64,000 nucleotides of DNA from an uncultured beta proteobacterium (GTDB lineage Bacteria > Pseudomonadota > Gammaproteobacteria > Burkholderiales > Burkholderiaceae_C), in contig CAILZB010000112.1 in assembly GCA_903838565.1 (NCBI GenBank), positions 97,098 through 161,097 on the forward strand. The letters are read 5' to 3'. The notes beneath the pieces are model-generated. The model ran no database searches. It worked only from the letters and a program-made list of their open reading frames with translations, and was not told the DNA's origin. Numbering within the stretch: position 1 is the stretch's first letter; every line of letters starts with the position of its first letter. Position numbers and translations under genes: made by a program. This document shows, in pieces, positions 24,323-30,977 of the stretch.

Positions 24323-25708
24323 ATGACAGACAGTCACCGCACCGAGGCTGAGCGCCTTTTCCATCAAGGTCTTGGACAGCTCAGCGCCAACGACCTGGAT
24401 AGCGCCGAAAACTCATTTCGCCGCGCACTTGACCTCTCCCCCGATTTCTTCGAAGCCTGGGCCAACCTGGCCTTCGCTCTCGATCAAAAGCAGGAACTTG
24501 CGCAGGCCGAAGCCTGCTACCGTCGCGCGCTCTCCATCGCCTCGAGAAGTTCGCACACGCATCTGAATCTGGGCACGCTGCTGGCGGCTCAGGATCGCTC
24601 CGGCGAGGCTGAAGACTGCTACCGCGAGGCCATTGCCTGCAGCCCCGAATCGGCCGCGGCCTGGTCCAACCTGGGCGTGCTCTGCATCGGCCTGAAGCGC
24701 GAGACCGAAGCCGAGGAGCTGCTGCGCAAGGCGCTGGCGCTGGACCCAACCTTTGCCAAGGCGCAGTTCAATCTGGCCTATCTCCAGCTGCGCCAGGGCC
24801 GCTTCGAAGAAGGCTGGCAAAGCCTGGAGGCGCGCGACTGGTACCGCGGCCTGGAAAACCACTTCGAATGCCCGCGCTGGCGCGGCGAATCACTCTCCGG
24901 CAAATCCCTGCTCATAGGCTACGAAGCCGGGCACGGCGACGTGATCCAGTTCTGCCGCTACGCCACGCTGCTCAAGGACCAGGGCACCGCGCGGATCACG
25001 CTGCTGTGTCATCCCGCGCTCAAGACGCTGCTGGCGACGCTGGCCGGGGTCGATCAGGTGCTGGCCTTCGACCAGGACGTTCCCCGATCAGGCTGGGACT
25101 ATTGGACACCGCTGCTGAGCCTTCCCTACCATTGCCAGACCCGCGCCGACTCCATCCCCGCCGCCATTCCCTACCTTCATGCCAGCGCCGACCGGATGGC
25201 GAAATGGGGCGCGCGGCTGCCCCTGGGCAAGCCCAGGGTGGGTCTGGTCTGGAAGGGCAATCCGAAATTTGACAACGACGCGGATCGCTCGATCGCGCGT
25301 CTGGACCTGCTGGCGCCCCTGGGCGCCGTGCCCGGGCTGAACTTCATCAGCCTGCAAAAGGGCGCGGGGGAAGACGAGGCACGTCAGCCGCCTCTTGGCC
25401 TGGCGCTGCTGCACCTGGGAACGGACTTGGAGGATTTTGCCGACGCTGCGGCGATCGTCGCGCAACTCGATCTGCTGATCTCGGTCGACACCGCCATGGC
25501 GCATCTGGCCGGCGCGCTGGGCACGCCCTGCTGGTTGCTGCTGCCCGATCACATGGCCGACTGGCGCTGGCAAAGCGAACGCAACGATTCGCCCTGGTAT
25601 CCCGGCCGCATGCGGCTGTTTCGCCAAACCCGCCGGGGCGACTGGTCTGGCGCGATCAAATCACTGAAGCAGGCGCTCACCTCGTGGGCAAACCAGGCAC
25701 ACGCCTGA
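24323..25708 (+). CDS. TPR-repeat protein with C-terminal glycosyltransferase-9-like domain
   Basis: Four or more TPR units at the N-terminus; the C-terminal half resembles heptosyltransferase/GT9-like proteins. Confidence 0.55.
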   Translation: MTDSHRTEAERLFHQGLGQLSANDLDSAENSFRRALDLSPDFFEAWANLAFALDQKQELAQAEACYRRALSIASRSSHTHLNLGTLLAAQDRSGEAEDCYREAIACSPESAAAWSNLGVLCIGLKRETEAEELLRKALALDPTFAKAQFNLAYLQLRQGRFEEGWQSLEARDWYRGLENHFECPRWRGESLSGKSLLIGYEAGHGDVIQFCRYATLLKDQGTARITLLCHPALKTLLATLAGVDQVLAFDQDVPRSGWDYWTPLLSLPYHCQTRADSIPAAIPYLHASADRMAKWGARLPLGKPRVGLVWKGNPKFDNDADRSIARLDLLAPLGAVPGLNFISLQKGAGEDEARQPPLGLALLHLGTDLEDFADAAAIVAQLDLLISVDTAMAHLAGALGTPCWLLLPDHMADWRWQSERNDSPWYPGRMRLFRQTRRGDWSGAIKSLKQALTSWANQAHA

Positions 25709-25722
25709 ACCGCGGGTCGGCC

Positions 25723-26454
25723 TCAGTGGCGCCCACCCCGATAGCCACCGTCGCGGTGTCCGCCGCCCCAGAAGCCATAGCCCAGCGACAAGCCGATCAG
25801 CGGGAAGTAGGGCTGGTAATACGGTTGGTAGTACGGCTGGTAATAGGGCGCGGCGTAGTAGCCGGAATAGGTGTTCGCCGGTGCCACGACGACGTTGGAA
25901 GCTTGCTGCACGTACACGGTCTGCACCCCCGGGTCGGTGCTCACGGCGGCAGGCGCTTGCGCGTAGGTCGTGGCCGGCGTCTGCGCGCTGGCGCCCACGG
26001 GTGAGACCTGCAGGCGGATGCTGGGACCGGGATCGTTGGGCATCTGCACCGTGTACTGCTTGCCGGCGAATTCATACACCACGTTGTACGCGACCGTGGC
26101 GTTTTCGTAAAAGGTCTGGACCTGACAACGCTGCACATTCTGCAGTTGCGTGCCACCGGAACCCTCGACGTTGTTGCCGATCACGGCGCCCGCGATCGTG
26201 CCGAACAGGGTCGCGGCCGCCTGGCCCGCGCCGCGGCCCAGCGCATTGCCCGCCGCGCCGCCCGCGATCGCACCCATCACGGCGCCCGCGCCCGACTTGG
26301 GCTGCTGCACCGCCATCTGCTCCACGGCGCAGACCTGGCGTGGCGTGCCGACCTGCTGCACGATGGGCGTGGAAGAAATCACGCGCCCGACTTCCTGAGC
26401 CAGGCACAGTCCTGACGAAATCATGGCGCTCACCAAGAGCAGTTGTTTTTTCAT
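25723..26454 (-). CDS. glycine-zipper 2TM (Rick_17kDa_Anti-like) lipoprotein with a YYQP repeat tail
   Basis: Signal peptide/lipobox; G-x-x-x-G zipper region; C-terminal YYQPYYQPYYQPY repeat. Confidence 0.55.
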   Translation of the reverse strand: MKKQLLLVSAMISSGLCLAQEVGRVISSTPIVQQVGTPRQVCAVEQMAVQQPKSGAGAVMGAIAGGAAGNALGRGAGQAAATLFGTIAGAVIGNNVEGSGGTQLQNVQRCQVQTFYENATVAYNVVYEFAGKQYTVQMPNDPGPSIRLQVSPVGASAQTPATTYAQAPAAVSTDPGVQTVYVQQASNVVVAPANTYSGYYAAPYYQPYYQPYYQPYFPLIGLSLGYGFWGGGHRDGGYRGGRH

Positions 26455-26572
26455 GGGCCTCATCCTTGAAGAGATTGGACAGAAGTGAATCATCCCTGTT
26501 TGTTCATTCCCTTGTGAGGAAGTTCAGTGAATCCAGGGTAAAGACCGGCAAATCTGTCGATGAGGCGCGAGC

Positions 26573-26926
26573 TTAAACCACGAAGTTGACGTTGTTGCCT
26601 GAAGTCGCCGTTGGCGCAGCCGGCGCGGGCAAGTTGCTGGCCGTGCCGCTGTGGTGGTGTCCCGAGCGCAGCGCCGAAAACGCCTGTTGCGCTGCTCCCA
26701 GGTCGCCATTTTGCAGGGCCTGGCCGAGTTGCGCGAGTGGACTGTTTGGGTTGCTGCTGGCGCTGGAGGATCCGCTGCCGGTGAGGGACGCGTAGGCAGC
26801 CTTGGCTCCCGTCAGGTCATTGGTCTTCAACGCCTGCGCCAGCGCCTGGAAGTCTTGCTGGCGTTGTTGCCAGGCGGCGGCGCCAGACTGGCTGGTGCCG
26901 GCGGTGGACGAAACTCGCATTCCCAT
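26573..26926 (-). CDS. small His-rich internally repeated protein, paralog A (hypothetical)
   Basis: AAWQQRQQ motif, two copies of an F-x-x-L-x-x-AL-x-x-x-DL-x-GA-x-x-AF-x-x-L unit, HHHSG tail. AAGGAG Shine-Dalgarno before the ATG at 26926. Confidence 0.5.
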   Translation of the reverse strand: MGMRVSSTAGTSQSGAAAWQQRQQDFQALAQALKTNDLTGAKAAYASLTGSGSSSASSNPNSPLAQLGQALQNGDLGAAQQAFSALRSGHHHSGTASNLPAPAAPTATSGNNVNFVV

Positions 26927-27216
26927 GTTGCTCTCCTTGCCGGGCTGGCCCTTGACCAAACGCTGGCAGGGTCGCCGCACCGCATGGAATTCTTATCGGC
27001 GGCCATTGCGGGGGGCTGTATCGCCTTTACCTTCGCACAAGGTAAAGCTTTGTGAATTTGCGTGAAGCTGAGTGTCTTAAAGCAGCACCAGGGTGAATAA
27101 CGGGGCATTGGTCGCCTTTTTCGACAGATGGGTGCAGCCGCAATCACTGACGATTCAACTCACCTGGGGGCTTGGTCACGATTCTCTCAGGTTCATTATT
27201 TTCAAGGAGCAGGATC

Positions 27217-27585
27217 ATGGGCATGAGCATTCAAGGCGTGAGCGCAACGGGATCGAATCAAAGCGTGGGCGCCGCGGCCTGGCAACAACGCCAGCAAAGC
27301 TTCAAGGACCTGACTGCCGCGTTGCAGTCGGGCGACCTGTCGGGGGCGCAAAAGGCGTTTTCTACGCTGACCGGTGGCACTGTGACAGTCAACGCCAGCA
27401 GCCCCTTGGCCAAGGTGGGTCAGGCGCTGCAGAACGGCGACCTCGCAGGTGCGCAAACTGCCATGCAGCAGGTCCAGGCGAGCCGCGCCGGACACCACCA
27501 TCATCACGCTGCGACGCCGCAGACTGCGACTGCCGCGCCAACCTCGTCCGGCTCGGTGGGGTCGTTGTTGAACACGACGGCATAA
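27217..27585 (+). CDS. small His-rich internally repeated protein, paralog B (hypothetical)
   Basis: About 55% identical to paralog A with the same motif order; HHHHH tract. AAGGAG Shine-Dalgarno before the ATG at 27217. Confidence 0.5.
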   Translation: MGMSIQGVSATGSNQSVGAAAWQQRQQSFKDLTAALQSGDLSGAQKAFSTLTGGTVTVNASSPLAKVGQALQNGDLAGAQTAMQQVQASRAGHHHHHAATPQTATAAPTSSGSVGSLLNTTA

Positions 27586-27591
27586 AGAAAC

Positions 27592-28569
27592 ATGGCCCTT
27601 CGTCGCGCCTTCCTCGCCGCCAGCGGTACCGCTCTGCTGGGTCTGATGCTGCCGCCAGACGTGCTGGCGCAAAGCTTTCCGACCAAGCCGCTGCACTTCA
27701 TCGTTCCGCTCGCGCCCGGTGGGTCGGCGGACATGCTGGCGCGGCTGGTGGGTCAGCACCTGAGCCAGCGCCTGGGTCAAGCCGTGATCGTGGAGATGCG
27801 GCCAGGCGGCGGTACGGTGGTTGGCACGTCGCAGGTGGCCAGGGCGGCGGCCGACGGCTACACGCTTTTATTTGCCTCCAACAGCTTGGTGATCAACGCC
27901 AAGCTGCGCACCAACCTGCCCTACGACGGCATCAAGGCCTTCGAACCGGTGGCCTTGATGGCGAGTTCGCCGCAGGTGCTGGCCGTCAACGCGGCCAGTC
28001 CCTATCGCAGCTTCAAACAATGGCTCGCTGCCGCTCGCGCTCAGCCGGGAACGGTGTCGCTGGCGTCACTGGGGCCCGACACCACGCAACACATGGCCTC
28101 GGAATGGCTGCAGCACACGACCGGCACGCAGCTCATTTATGCGCCTTTCAACGGCGGCGCGCTGGCCGTGAACGCGGTGTTGGGTGGCCACGTCGACACG
28201 GTGCTGGGCAACCTGGCCGAGATGTCGCCCCACATCGAAGCGGGACGGCTGCGAGCGCTGGCAGTGACGACACGCGAGCGCTTGAGCGCGCTGCAGCAAG
28301 TGCCCACTATCGCCGAGTCGGGCTACCCCGGGTTCGAGGCCATAGCCTGGTTCGGCGTGGCTGTGCCTGCGGGGACGCCGCAGGAGGTGATCCAGGTGTT
28401 GGCCGAGGGCGTGAAATCGGCCATGAGCGATCCTGAAATCCGCAGGCAGTTGCTGGCGTTCAGCCTGCAGCCGGACTTTCTTGGCCCGGCCGAGTTCGCT
28501 GGACACGTCGCGCAGCAATATCAGCACTACGCGCACATCATCGACGACGCACACATCCAGGTGATGTAG
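27592..28569 (+). CDS. Bug-family (TctC-like) tripartite tricarboxylate transporter substrate-binding protein
   Basis: Signal peptide; PLAPGGSADMLAR Bug signature. Confidence 0.85.
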   Translation: MALRRAFLAASGTALLGLMLPPDVLAQSFPTKPLHFIVPLAPGGSADMLARLVGQHLSQRLGQAVIVEMRPGGGTVVGTSQVARAAADGYTLLFASNSLVINAKLRTNLPYDGIKAFEPVALMASSPQVLAVNAASPYRSFKQWLAAARAQPGTVSLASLGPDTTQHMASEWLQHTTGTQLIYAPFNGGALAVNAVLGGHVDTVLGNLAEMSPHIEAGRLRALAVTTRERLSALQQVPTIAESGYPGFEAIAWFGVAVPAGTPQEVIQVLAEGVKSAMSDPEIRRQLLAFSLQPDFLGPAEFAGHVAQQYQHYAHIIDDAHIQVM

Positions 28570-28584
28570 GCCCGAAGCCGATCC

Positions 28585-29889
28585 ATGGCGCACTTGCTGA
28601 TCATCGAACTGCCCGGTGGCAACGACACCGACATCGCTCAAGCCGCGATTTCGCGCGGCGACGACTTCACGTTCCTGTCGGCGCAACTCGGGCATTACCG
28701 GCGCCAGCCTCAGGTGCAGGCCATCCTTGATCAGGCCTATGCGCAGATCGAGGTGCCCGGTTTTGACTACCCGCAGGTGGAGCACGCCGTGCTGGAACTG
28801 CACGCGCACTTTCCCCTGGACGCCGTGCTGTGCCTGCTGGATATCCGCCTGATCGATGCCGCGCGCCTGGCGCAACGCCTGGATCTGCGCCACGTCAGTC
28901 CGTCGACGGCGGTGCTGTTGCGCGACAAGTTCAAGGTGCGTCAGCGTCTGGCCGAGCGCGGTTTGACGCAGCCGGAGTTTGCGCTGGCGCAATCCAATGA
29001 TGAACTCAGGCAGGCCGTGGCGCGCCTGGGCCTGCCCGTGCTGATCAAGCCCTCAGACGGCTATGGCTCGCAAAACGTCGTCCTGCTGCGCCATGACGAA
29101 GACCTCGAGCCCTGGATCACACCACTCGACGACATGCTGCCCAGCCGCACCGACTACGGCCTGGGCGTCAGAGCCAACGACCGACTGCTGGTCGAGCGCT
29201 ACATGGAAGGCGCCGTGATCGGCTGCGACACGCTGAGCGTGAATGGCGAACATCGGATGCTGGGCGTGAACGAAAAACTGTTCTTCAATCCTCCTTCTTT
29301 TGCCATCCAGGGCGGTTGTTTCCAGCCGAACGCACCCGCTTTCGAAAGCATCCAGCGCTATGTCTTTGCGTGTCTGGATGCGGTCGGTTTCGACTGGGGC
29401 GCAACCCACACCGAGCTCATGCTCACCGCCGATGGTCCGCGCCTGATCGAGATCAATCCACGACTGGTGGGGGCCAAGATTGCGCGGCTTGTTGGCTACG
29501 CGCTGAACCATTCGATCCACTCCGACCTGATCACCACGCATTTGGGCAAGCATGCCGCTTTCCACGCCGGGCCTGCTGCGGCTCACGTGGCGGTGACGCG
29601 CTGGATCGTGGCCGAGCAACCGGGTGTGCTGGAGCGCATCGACCTGCCAGACTGGCGCGACGACCGCATCCGCTGTGTGGAAATATTGAAGCAGCCTGGC
29701 GACACGCTGCGGCCGCCGTTCGAGAATGCTGACCGCATCGGCTACGTCATGGTGTGCGCACCCACCCGTGACGAAGCCGAGACGCTGGCGCAGCGTTTTG
29801 TGGCCGCAACACAGGTGGGGCTGAAGCCCGCCGTGGACGATCAAGGCGTTGCCATGCGCTCCCAGAGCATGGCGCGAAAGGCGTCGTAG
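28585..29889 (+). CDS. ATP-grasp domain protein (carboxylate-amine ligase-like)
   Basis: Pre-ATP-grasp plus ATP-grasp fold (LIKPSDGYGSQNV and LIEINPRL motifs). Confidence 0.7.
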   Translation: MAHLLIIELPGGNDTDIAQAAISRGDDFTFLSAQLGHYRRQPQVQAILDQAYAQIEVPGFDYPQVEHAVLELHAHFPLDAVLCLLDIRLIDAARLAQRLDLRHVSPSTAVLLRDKFKVRQRLAERGLTQPEFALAQSNDELRQAVARLGLPVLIKPSDGYGSQNVVLLRHDEDLEPWITPLDDMLPSRTDYGLGVRANDRLLVERYMEGAVIGCDTLSVNGEHRMLGVNEKLFFNPPSFAIQGGCFQPNAPAFESIQRYVFACLDAVGFDWGATHTELMLTADGPRLIEINPRLVGAKIARLVGYALNHSIHSDLITTHLGKHAAFHAGPAAAHVAVTRWIVAEQPGVLERIDLPDWRDDRIRCVEILKQPGDTLRPPFENADRIGYVMVCAPTRDEAETLAQRFVAATQVGLKPAVDDQGVAMRSQSMARKAS

Positions 29890-30977
29890 GCCTTTTGCAT
29901 CACGGCCGGCTTGTAGGGAAAGAGCGCGACATCGTCGGTCGAATGCACCCAGGCGCGGCTGTCCACCTCGAACAGCAGCAGGCGTCCAGCGCTCGTCTGC
30001 GCGCAATCGAGCACCGCGTAATCCAGGCCCAGTCGCCGCGAAATTTCCCGCAAAGACGCACCGTGGCGCAGACCGAAATCCTGCTCGAAATTCACCATCG
30101 CCGCAGCCTCCTCGGTGCGTTTGCTTTCGCTGAGTTCCATGCCCGCCGACAGGTAGTGAACCATCCAGTCCCCGGAAATCGCCAGGTGGCAGATGAAGGG
30201 CTCGCCATCAATCAGCACGATGCGCAGCTTGCGGAAAAGTCCATCGTCGTCCCGGTAGTCCACATAGTCGGCAACGAAATAGTCCGTGCCGGCGTGGCGT
30301 TCGACAAAGGCATCCAAAGCGGCCTGGGTGTCGATCTTCTCCAGGCCGGTTCCGCCTTGGGTATCGACCGGTCGGATCGTCAGCGGGAAGCGCGGGTTGC
30401 GGATCTGCTCGCGCGAGAGTCTTTGCGTTCTGGCCATGACCAGGCCGGGAATGTCGCGCAGCCGTTGGTAGGCGATGTCTCGCGCGCAGTTCCCAATGGC
30501 GCTCGCCGGGTTCAGCACCGGTCGCGGCCAGTCGGCCAGCAGGGTCTGCGCCTGCGCCAGCAGCGGACGGTTCTTGTCGGACTCGCCGATGGCCAGCATC
30601 ACCAGGTCGTGCTCGGGAATCCCCTCTGGCAGCGCCTGGTCGGGCAGCAGGTACAGCAGATCGAGCTGGACATCGCCGTGCTCAATCAGAAACTCCAGCG
30701 GCGTGTTGTCCAGCAGGTCGCCGGGCGCCATCAGCGCCAGCAGGCGAATGGCGGGCTGCTCGGGCCCTTCCAGGCGATACAGACGCCGCAGCTTCAAGGC
30801 ACGCGCCTGCATCTCGAGCGCGAACTCGCGCTGCCCCATGGCCAGCAGCACATAGAACATCTGCATGCACAGGTGCGCCAGGTCCGGGTTCTCGTGGGTC
30901 TGGGTGATGAACGCCGGCAGCGCCTGGGCGGGCATGCGCACCAGCTTGAGAAGACCCGCAATTGGCTGCAAATCCAT
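29841..30977 (-). CDS. hypothetical protein with RimK-like ATP-grasp C-terminal domain and an unknown N-terminal domain
   Basis: C-terminal pattern resembles RimK/GSH-synthetase ATP-binding domain (RIVLIDGEPF, LLLFEVD). 3' end overlaps the convergent ATP-grasp gene by 49 bp. Confidence 0.5.
   Translation of the reverse strand: MDLQPIAGLLKLVRMPAQALPAFITQTHENPDLAHLCMQMFYVLLAMGQREFALEMQARALKLRRLYRLEGPEQPAIRLLALMAPGDLLDNTPLEFLIEHGDVQLDLLYLLPDQALPEGIPEHDLVMLAIGESDKNRPLLAQAQTLLADWPRPVLNPASAIGNCARDIAYQRLRDIPGLVMARTQRLSREQIRNPRFPLTIRPVDTQGGTGLEKIDTQAALDAFVERHAGTDYFVADYVDYRDDDGLFRKLRIVLIDGEPFICHLAISGDWMVHYLSAGMELSESKRTEEAAAMVNFEQDFGLRHGASLREISRRLGLDYAVLDCAQTSAGRLLLFEVDSRAWVHSTDDVALFPYKPAVMQKAYDAFRAMLWERMATP

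Follow-up and report, generated by a model that had tools for sequence, protein, structure and literature searches.

A 64,000-nucleotide stretch of contig CAILZB010000112.1 (positions 97,098 to 161,097 of the forward strand; GenBank assembly GCA_903838565.1, an uncultured beta proteobacterium), referred to below as the window, carries two divergently transcribed genes, A and B, for small paralogous proteins with a predicted helical core. Gene B is the first cistron of an operon encoding an L-amino-acid-ligase-type ATP-grasp enzyme, and the linkage of its subfamily to this ligase operon is tight and ancient. Both genes belong to a large family which, like the operon, is undescribed; the feature is real and conserved. 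Tentatively, A and B are read here as non-enzymatic helper or adaptor proteins of the ligase pathway, with A co-regulated and the His run as an optional metal-binding addition.

The ligase operon

The window operon has the short form B-TctC-ligase, with 6 nt between the B stop codon and the second cistron and no terminator predicted between B, TctC and the ligase gene. The ligase product scored 60.6 bits against LAL_C2 (cut-off 29.4) and 49 bits against ATP-grasp_4 in Pfam, was matched to solved L-amino acid ligases in the PDB at E values of 1e-21 and 3e-18, and is thereby a member of this enzyme group. In every proteobacterial locus with enough sequence, a family gene was found upstream of an orthologous ligase gene (50-81% identity) on the same strand. 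Loci with this linkage come from Betaproteobacteria, Methylobacter and one metagenome-assembled genome (MAG) labelled Fibrobacteria. Intercistronic gaps were tiny or gave way to overlaps; at L168 the stop and start codons overlap. Between the family gene and the ligase gene, varying sets of genes were present for TctC, a flavin mononucleotide (FMN) reductase, a WD40 protein of approximately 570 residues and an FGE-sulfatase-like protein of approximately 340 residues. TctC was also second at L001, L004, L013, L016, L020, L054 and many metagenome loci, and an MFS transporter gene often followed the operon in relatives. A reciprocal metagenome search started from the ligase recovered a family gene in 45 of 80 ligase loci, most of the remainder being contigs that ended early on the upstream side.

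Two or three separate family-plus-ligase modules were observed within single MAGs (L001 and L004; L002 and L003; L006, L011 and L022). A 482-residue protein that has one CIACH haem motif and whose N-terminus resembles a signal sequence (L010:13047-14492, plus strand; homologues at L017, L087, L103, L119 and L148) recurred within approximately 4 kb of the ligase gene. It had no Pfam or NCBIfam match and may resemble the fused cytochrome-porins of the Cyc2 type.

Toxoflavin-type enzymes in the long operons

In a longer form, the operon comprises genes for the family protein, a ToxC-like WD40 protein, an FMN reductase, a ToxD-like protein and the L-amino acid ligase, often with a gene for GTP cyclohydrolase II. 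Such operons were found at L168:9001-13980, L010:7881-12964, L014, L015, L019, L023 and many of L081-L150, in uncultured Betaproteobacteria, Methylobacter and the Fibrobacteria-labelled MAG. The FGE-like protein of L168 was matched to the solved structure of ToxD (7spq) at E 1.3e-97; the NCBI name of the ToxD-like protein is SUMF1/EgtB/PvdO family nonheme iron enzyme. Azospirillum thermophilum has a toxoflavin-type cluster in which adjacent genes encode counterparts of the WD40 and FGE-like proteins, with full-length identities of 50% and 55%, respectively. Further products of the Azospirillum cluster are a methyltransferase, GTP cyclohydrolase II and RibD, and a similar toxoflavin-type cluster is carried on a Yersinia plasmid. 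ToxC has been proposed as the oxidase for N-N bond formation (bioRxiv 10.1101/2025.05.27.656397). GTP cyclohydrolase II was encoded directly 3' of the ligase in at least eight loci; it also adjoins the ligase gene at L128-130, where the ligase belongs to a clade that has no family gene nearby.

Because of the ToxC-like, ToxD-like and GTP cyclohydrolase II homologues, the long operons look like a cryptic toxoflavin-related pathway. They share the homologues of ToxC (WD40), ToxD (FGE-like) and ToxB (GTP cyclohydrolase II) with the toxoflavin (tox) operon but lack the ToxA methyltransferase and the ToxE deaminase, and they add the ATP-grasp ligase, the FMN reductase and the small family protein. 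In Proteobacteria, family genes mark an undescribed operon in which an L-amino acid ligase is encoded together with the enzymes presumed to assemble the N-N-bonded triazine ring in toxoflavin. Its product, together with the role of the small helical protein, could reveal a new class of metabolite in abundant uncultured freshwater bacteria.

Genes A and B

The first-pass annotation of the window had described two paralogues of about 120 residues, one on each strand, approximately 290 bp apart and about 55% identical. The products were found to be 117 and 122 residues long, with 290 bp between the start codons, and independent gene calls of public assemblies gave the same products at equal lengths. 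In BLASTP with the exact sequences, the first 86 residues were 53% identical (E 5e-25); the C-terminal thirds did not align. The near-identical leader and ribosome-binding contexts were confirmed, with AAGGAG 7 nt 5' of ATGGG(A/C)ATG in both genes, as was the common motif AAWQQRQQ. Ratios of nonsynonymous to synonymous substitution (dN/dS) against the orthologues in L001 and L004 were 0.18-0.26 for A and 0.09-0.10 for B, and both are therefore protein-coding genes under purifying selection.

The claimed two-fold internal repeat was significant by BLAST in B, where ALQSGDLSGAQKAF and ALQNGDLAGAQTAM are identical at 10 of 14 positions (E 7e-6). In A it was missed by BLAST, but the same two hairpins were present in the family alignment and in the AlphaFold models. 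Both His tracts are present (HHH in A, HHHHH in B). No signal peptide or hydrophobic N-terminal stretch was found in A or B, as had been noted. Coordinates are listed in Table 1.

Table 1. Coordinates of genes A and B, their signals and the operon genes in the window
Feature	Position	Strand	Description
Gene A	26573..26926	minus	117 aa plus stop, MGMRVSS...NVNFVV; open reading frame; divergent monocistronic paralogue
Gene B	27217..27585	plus	122 aa plus stop, MGMSIQG...LLNTTA; open reading frame; first cistron of ligase operon
Shine-Dalgarno AAGGAG of A	26933..26938	minus	read from sequence; GGAG kept in upstream alignment
Shine-Dalgarno AAGGAG of B	27204..27209	plus	read from sequence; GGAG kept in upstream alignment
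HHH of A	26651-26659	minus	residues 90-92
HHHHH of B	27493-27507	plus	residues 93-97
C-terminal motif TSGNNVNFVV of A	26576-26605	minus	
C-terminal motif SVGSLLNTTA of B	27553-27582	plus	
Shared divergent control region	26927..27216	.	290 bp; several conserved blocks in A-type and B-type upstream alignments
Perfect 9-nt inverted repeat CTTTACCTT-N5-AAGGTAAAG	27025-27033 and 27039-27047	.	dyad of the first-pass annotation
Tandem pentamers TTCAC-N5-TTCAC-N5-TTTAC	27042..27067	minus	approximately 115-140 nt 5' of A start, read towards A
TctC/Bug-family periplasmic solute-binding protein	27592..28569	plus	second cistron; Pfam TctC E 2.6e-69
L-amino-acid-ligase-type ATP-grasp enzyme	28585..29889	plus	Pfam LAL_C2 + ATP-grasp_4/3

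Extent and conserved features of the family

No Pfam or NCBIfam model reached its cut-off for A or B, in keeping with the failure of the first-pass annotation to recognise the family. Across 139 members scanned, sub-threshold Pfam matches to the hairpin families MPH2, cytochrome b562, CATASP and TPR recurred in most. A single-sequence search returned 226 matches; the family further comprises 886 representatives at 50% identity and, by profile search, at least 3,731 clusters. Among GTDB species genomes, 354 family loci were found, mostly in MAGs of Betaproteobacteria and Acidobacteriota, with scattered loci in Gamma-, Alpha- and Deltaproteobacteria, Verrucomicrobia and others. Members are named hypothetical protein in their sources, apart from a few automated labels (soluble cytochrome b562, BamD/ComL family, FadR-family regulator). 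A full-text literature search for the family motif and for the gene combination returned nothing. A very large family, with thousands of clusters and common in lake and peat Betaproteobacteria and Acidobacteriota, is thus missing from curated libraries.

The number of repeats per member ranges from 2 to more than 20. Retained across members are a short peptide at the N-terminus (MGMRI... or MSISALSS...) and, at the C-terminus, an ending of the form hydrophobic-[N/D/S]-x-x-Ala/Val with a Gly before it. The N-terminal motif was present in 68% of 302 family proteins, in 32/32 operon-leading orthologues and in 21/21 divergent partners; the C-terminal motif was present in 82%, 27/32 and 20/21, respectively. 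The last residue was Ala in 30 of the 32 operon-leading orthologues. A run of three or more His was present in 68% of the 302 proteins, in 16/32 operon-leading orthologues and in 4/21 divergent partners and, where present, sits directly after the last helix, in several phyla. The His run is thus common but dispensable; the two termini are the family signature. None of the 53 operon-linked or divergent-partner proteins contains Cys, which occurs in just 23 of the 302 members. Judged by eye, the sequences carry little charge and have a high content of Ser, Thr, Ala, Gly and Gln.

Long acidobacterial members (L021-L079, e.g. L034:7677-8570, P0176) have an additional region rich in Ser, Thr and Gly, in which strand-like segments (EIVLNLG/EQITINL/QIILNLF) recur that are reminiscent of the family's C-terminal motif. 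Candidate neighbours of acidobacterial family genes (a BON-domain protein, a TIM-barrel isomerase and YbjQ) lay 1-4 kb away in one closely related clade and were set aside as synteny rather than linkage. Response regulators were also rejected as neighbours, the receiver domains being mixed and at varying distances.

Predicted fold

AlphaFold models built on family alignments gave a four-helix core with disordered ends for both proteins. The predicted helices span residues 14-34, 38-51, 63-73 and 76-91 in A and 16-38, 41-51, 63-73 and 76-92 in B. The core consists of two predicted helix-turn-helix units, each turn formed by the ALQxGDLxxAQxAF motif, so that the bundle of approximately 75 residues is modelled as two TPR-like helix-turn-helix repeats. 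The predicted local distance difference test (pLDDT) was about 78-91 in the helical blocks of the two models and lower in the loop between the hairpins; in B it was 84-91 in the core and below 50 at residues 3-15 and 94-122. Disorder was modelled over approximately 15 N-terminal residues and from the His run to the C-terminus. Invariant positions in the family alignment fall in the hairpin turns (Leu, Ala, Gly, Asp and Gln), and judged by the alignment these are structural positions and not a metal site. No conserved set of Cys, His, Asp or Glu ligands was found in the folded core.

The fold itself is ordinary and shares only its class with PsbQ, cytochrome b562 and HPt-like bundles. No solved structure was related by sequence (best E 0.058), and none of PsbQ/Psb31/MPH2, cytochrome b562 and c', HPt, TPR-like and designed-repeat families was matched at cut-off. 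In contrast to these generic bundles, the family has conserved termini of its own and lacks the helix His of HPt, haem ligands in register and an export signal. For the HPt domain (PF01627), B scored 14 bits against a cut-off of 24.6, and no His lies within the predicted helices. For CATASP (PF20271, caspase-associated small protein of defence systems), B scored 16.9 bits against 29, and no protease was detected among the neighbours scanned against Pfam. A defence system, suggested by the weak CATASP matches and by the WD40 and FGE domains, was rejected as PADLOC returned nothing relevant, with no match for A, B or their window neighbours.

Divergent pair and shared control region

The divergent arrangement is conserved, with 22 complete A-type/B-type pairs. 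The tails separate two orthologous groups, the operon-leading proteins ending in G-x-G-S-L-L-N-x-T-A and the divergent partners in T-x-G-N-x-V-N-x-Y/V-V/A. Downstream of the A-type gene, no conserved gene was found in 21 orthologous loci, and the A-type gene is therefore effectively monocistronic.

The dyads reported in the intergenic region are genuine: the perfect 9-nt inverted repeat and the CACAA-N9-TTGTG that overlaps it lie within a larger conserved control element. The tandem pentamers overlap this dyad and are followed by GTAAAG; the TTTAC...GTAAAG arrangement recurs in L001, L018, L086, L100, L105 and L115. The pattern TTYAC-N5/6-TTYAC was present in 10 of 22 divergent intergenic regions, compared with 0.1-0.3 expected from shuffles or random segments of the same loci, and always pointed towards the A-type gene. 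The pentamer run is a candidate regulator binding site; direct repeats spaced 10-11 bp would fit the sites typically bound by winged-helix response regulators. The control region contained no sigma-70 consensus promoter, no terminator and no Rfam match.

A structured 5' leader of B was considered and rejected. Hairpins seen by eye were not unusual thermodynamically (z mostly -2 to +1), RNAalifold gave no consensus structure and Rfam gave no match. The 5' leader of the A-type gene (window 26940-27000, minus strand; also in L001 and L004) is conserved as DNA sequence, CGATAA..CATGCG.TGC..CGA...TGCCA..GTTTGG. Its frame relative to the open reading frame differs between loci, which suggests an RNA or DNA element and not a coding one. 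Some public annotations translate this leader as an N-terminal extension (P0068, P0076).

Proposed role of A and B

The linkage to the ligase, helical repeats of a protein-contact type and the terminal peptides together favour a helper or adaptor role, which we hold only tentatively. A and B would be small, probably cytoplasmic, non-enzymatic proteins composed of a conserved N-terminal peptide, the helical bundle and a flexible tail, the tail comprising the optional His run, a Ser/Thr/Pro/Ala linker and the short conserved C-terminal motif. B would be strongly translated as the first cistron of the ligase operon, and A produced as a co-regulated monocistronic paralogue from the same control region. 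The helical repeats and the short terminal motifs may bind the ligase or its partners, and the His run may add metal binding where present. The genes, their paralogy, the modelled fold, the family size, the operon linkage and the conserved control element are observed; binding of the ligase, action as helpers, metal binding and residence in the cytoplasm are inferred. MbtH-like proteins offer an analogy only: they too are small, non-enzymatic, encoded with an amide-bond-forming enzyme and often present as several paralogues per genome. However, they assist adenylating enzymes in nonribosomal peptide synthetase clusters, are unrelated in fold and sequence, and differ in that the putative partner of the family is an ATP-grasp enzyme. 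A helper or scaffold for ATP-grasp ligases could be of a new kind.

Several findings weigh against this proposal. The majority of the family, found in Acidobacteriota and other phyla, is not encoded near a ligase gene and yet carries the same terminal motifs, which implies a more general activity that the ligase operon has recruited. Conversely, a ligase clade at 53-58% identity from genomes of low G+C content (L128-130, L143, L153-155) has no family gene nearby, so the ligase does not strictly need a family protein, at least in cis. None of the genes for ToxC-like and ToxD-like proteins, FMN reductase and GTP cyclohydrolase II is present in the window operon, and the pathway here may therefore differ from that of the long form. 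Finally, L-amino acid ligases are not known to have helper proteins.

The first-pass annotation had offered a metal chaperone or storage protein and a phasin-like coat as candidate roles. As a metal chaperone, buffer or store, the protein would capture Ni, Zn, Cu, Co or Fe with the His run of its flexible tail and pass it on or buffer it, by analogy with the tails of UreE, HypB, SlyD and CooJ. The fixed position of the run after the last helix in 68% of 302 members from several phyla agrees with this, as do the ToxD-like protein of the long operons, named a nonheme iron enzyme by NCBI, and the single loci in which the pair adjoins a cation-diffusion facilitator gene (L163) or lies near an Nramp gene (L166). 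However, the run is absent from 16/32 operon-leading orthologues, 17/21 divergent partners and 32% of the 302 members, and it does not track the ToxD-like gene, since several orthologues without it head operons that contain ToxD. Conserved metal-binding residues of the metallochaperone kind were not found, in the run or among the residues of the folded core. The recurrent neighbours are the ligase, TctC, FMN reductase, ToxC- and ToxD-like proteins, RibA and MFS transporters, with no genes for metalloenzyme maturation among them, and metal transporters occur near family genes in single loci only. The His-rich tail is of the type found in UreE, HypB, SlyD, CooJ, Hpn and SmbP, but there is no sequence relationship to these proteins and no hydrogenase, urease or carbon monoxide dehydrogenase context, and half of the closest orthologues dispense with the run, unlike His-tailed metallochaperones. 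Pfam and NCBIfam scans at E values up to 10 gave no match to the UreE, HypB, SlyD or CooJ families. Because the metal idea derives solely from a His run that the family does not conserve, metal storage was demoted and is considered unlikely as the main role; metal binding by the tails of A and B is plausible as a secondary property. Simple metal buffers would be of modest interest. A phasin-like granule coat or a haem protein of the cytochrome b562 type is very improbable. The fold is helical, a Met lies near the N-terminus, and weak Cytochrom_B562 matches ending at the position of the haem-ligating His were found in 96 of the 139 members scanned. These matches scored 18-21 bits (B 18.3, P0115 20.9; best E 1.3e-4) against the gathering cut-off of 30 for PF07361. 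Cytochrome b562 is a long exported bundle with Met/His haem ligation, whereas the family helices are much shorter (11-23 residues), a signal peptide is lacking and the His is not universal. The phasin suggestion gained no support: no phasin model matched family members at E values up to 10, and no polyhydroxyalkanoate gene was found among the scanned neighbours.

The remaining explanations start from the conserved termini or from the gene arrangement. The C-terminus, usually Ala, might be the carboxylate substrate of the ligase, to which an amino acid is appended and from which the product is tailored and then released, as in the precedents of LysW/LysX, RimK with ribosomal protein S6, C-terminally extended scaffold peptides (pearlins) and peptide-derived cofactors. 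These systems share a small protein with a conserved C-terminus beside a carboxylate-amine ligase, and the family adds a flexible linker, a terminal Ala in 30/32 and the motif in 27/32 operon-leading orthologues, and tailoring-type enzymes and MFS exporters within the same operons. On the other hand, the motif is also kept in members without a nearby ligase, ligase homologues occur without a family gene, and the ligase resembles those acting on free amino acids (LAL_C2). The operon has no conserved protease. The acidic EDWGE-type tail and zinc ribbon of LysW-type carriers are lacking, A and B ending in ...NFVV and ...NTTA and containing no Cys. A precursor role is thus distinctly unlikely, and somewhat more doubtful still is its specific form, in which B and perhaps A would be ribosomally made scaffolds whose tail is extended by the ligase before, in long operons, the ToxC-like oxidase, ToxD-like enzyme and flavin reductase act on it. 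If true, freshwater and soil bacteria would make a protein-templated small molecule or cofactor of a new class. Equally improbable as a precursor is an exported, self-assembling structural protein, comparable to flagellin or type I secretion substrates, with the termini as secretion or strand-pairing signals and the helical repeats as the body. Conservation of both termini contrasts with a repeat number of anything from 2 to more than 20, Cys is rare and charge low in the Ser/Thr/Ala/Gly/Gln-rich sequences, and the acidobacterial EIVLNLG/EQITINL segments resemble the C-terminal motif. The L160 pair adjoins a TPR-glycosyltransferase and a type I secretion ABC/adaptor pair, and against a matrix derived from YjfB the C-terminal motif scored near the 98th-99th percentile of background open reading frames. 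A signal peptide is lacking, however, the secretion neighbourhood does not recur, profile comparison with YjfB shows no relationship, and a secreted structural protein would hardly be expected at the head of an operon of cytoplasmic enzymes. An unstable regulatory pair has a slim chance, slightly below that of export: the operon would be regulated through binding of A and B to partners, the non-polar tail would serve as a protease tag and A would take the place of a divergent regulator. The divergent monocistronic A-type position conserved in 22 loci, the conserved control region common to both genes and the small non-polar residues at the C-terminus are consistent with this, but no DNA-binding motif, few basic residues and no match to a known regulator family in Pfam or NCBIfam were found. 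The degron idea for the tail is drawn from the substrate preferences of ClpXP and Tsp.

A likeness of the termini to YjfB_motility (PF14070) was followed up and rejected. YjfB is also small, and its M-x-I-x-A-L-S motif at the N-terminus and its G-x-x-I-D/N-x-x-hydrophobic ending at the C-terminus are similar to those of the family. No match was obtained by hmmscan (139 + 6 members), and the hhalign probability was 0.07%. With YjfB matrices, only the C-terminal motif scored above background; the N-terminal score was at background for proteobacterial members, including A and B.

Type I secretion was likewise set aside as a context: it was seen at L160 and L161 and was not recurrent among 160 other loci. 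At L160:7364-14691, in one MAG, the divergent family pair lies beside genes for a peroxiredoxin, a TPR-GT41 glycosyltransferase and a type I secretion ABC transporter with its adaptor.

Neighbouring genes in the window

Downstream of A, the minus strand at 25723-26493 encodes a glycine-zipper (Rick_17kDa_Anti) lipoprotein with a YYQPYYQPYYQPYF repeat at its end. Two genes from A, at 24323-25708 on the plus strand, lies the gene for a TPR protein with a weakly glycosyltransferase-9-like C-terminal region; a 35%-identical homologue of this protein is encoded at L055 near the family gene of that locus. On the other side of the operon, a 378-residue protein is encoded at 29841-30977 on the minus strand, convergent with the ligase gene and overlapping its 3' end by 49 nt. 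It had no Pfam, NCBIfam or PDB match, and homologues of 32-80% identity are encoded near the family loci L002, L004, L020, L087, L141 and L146.

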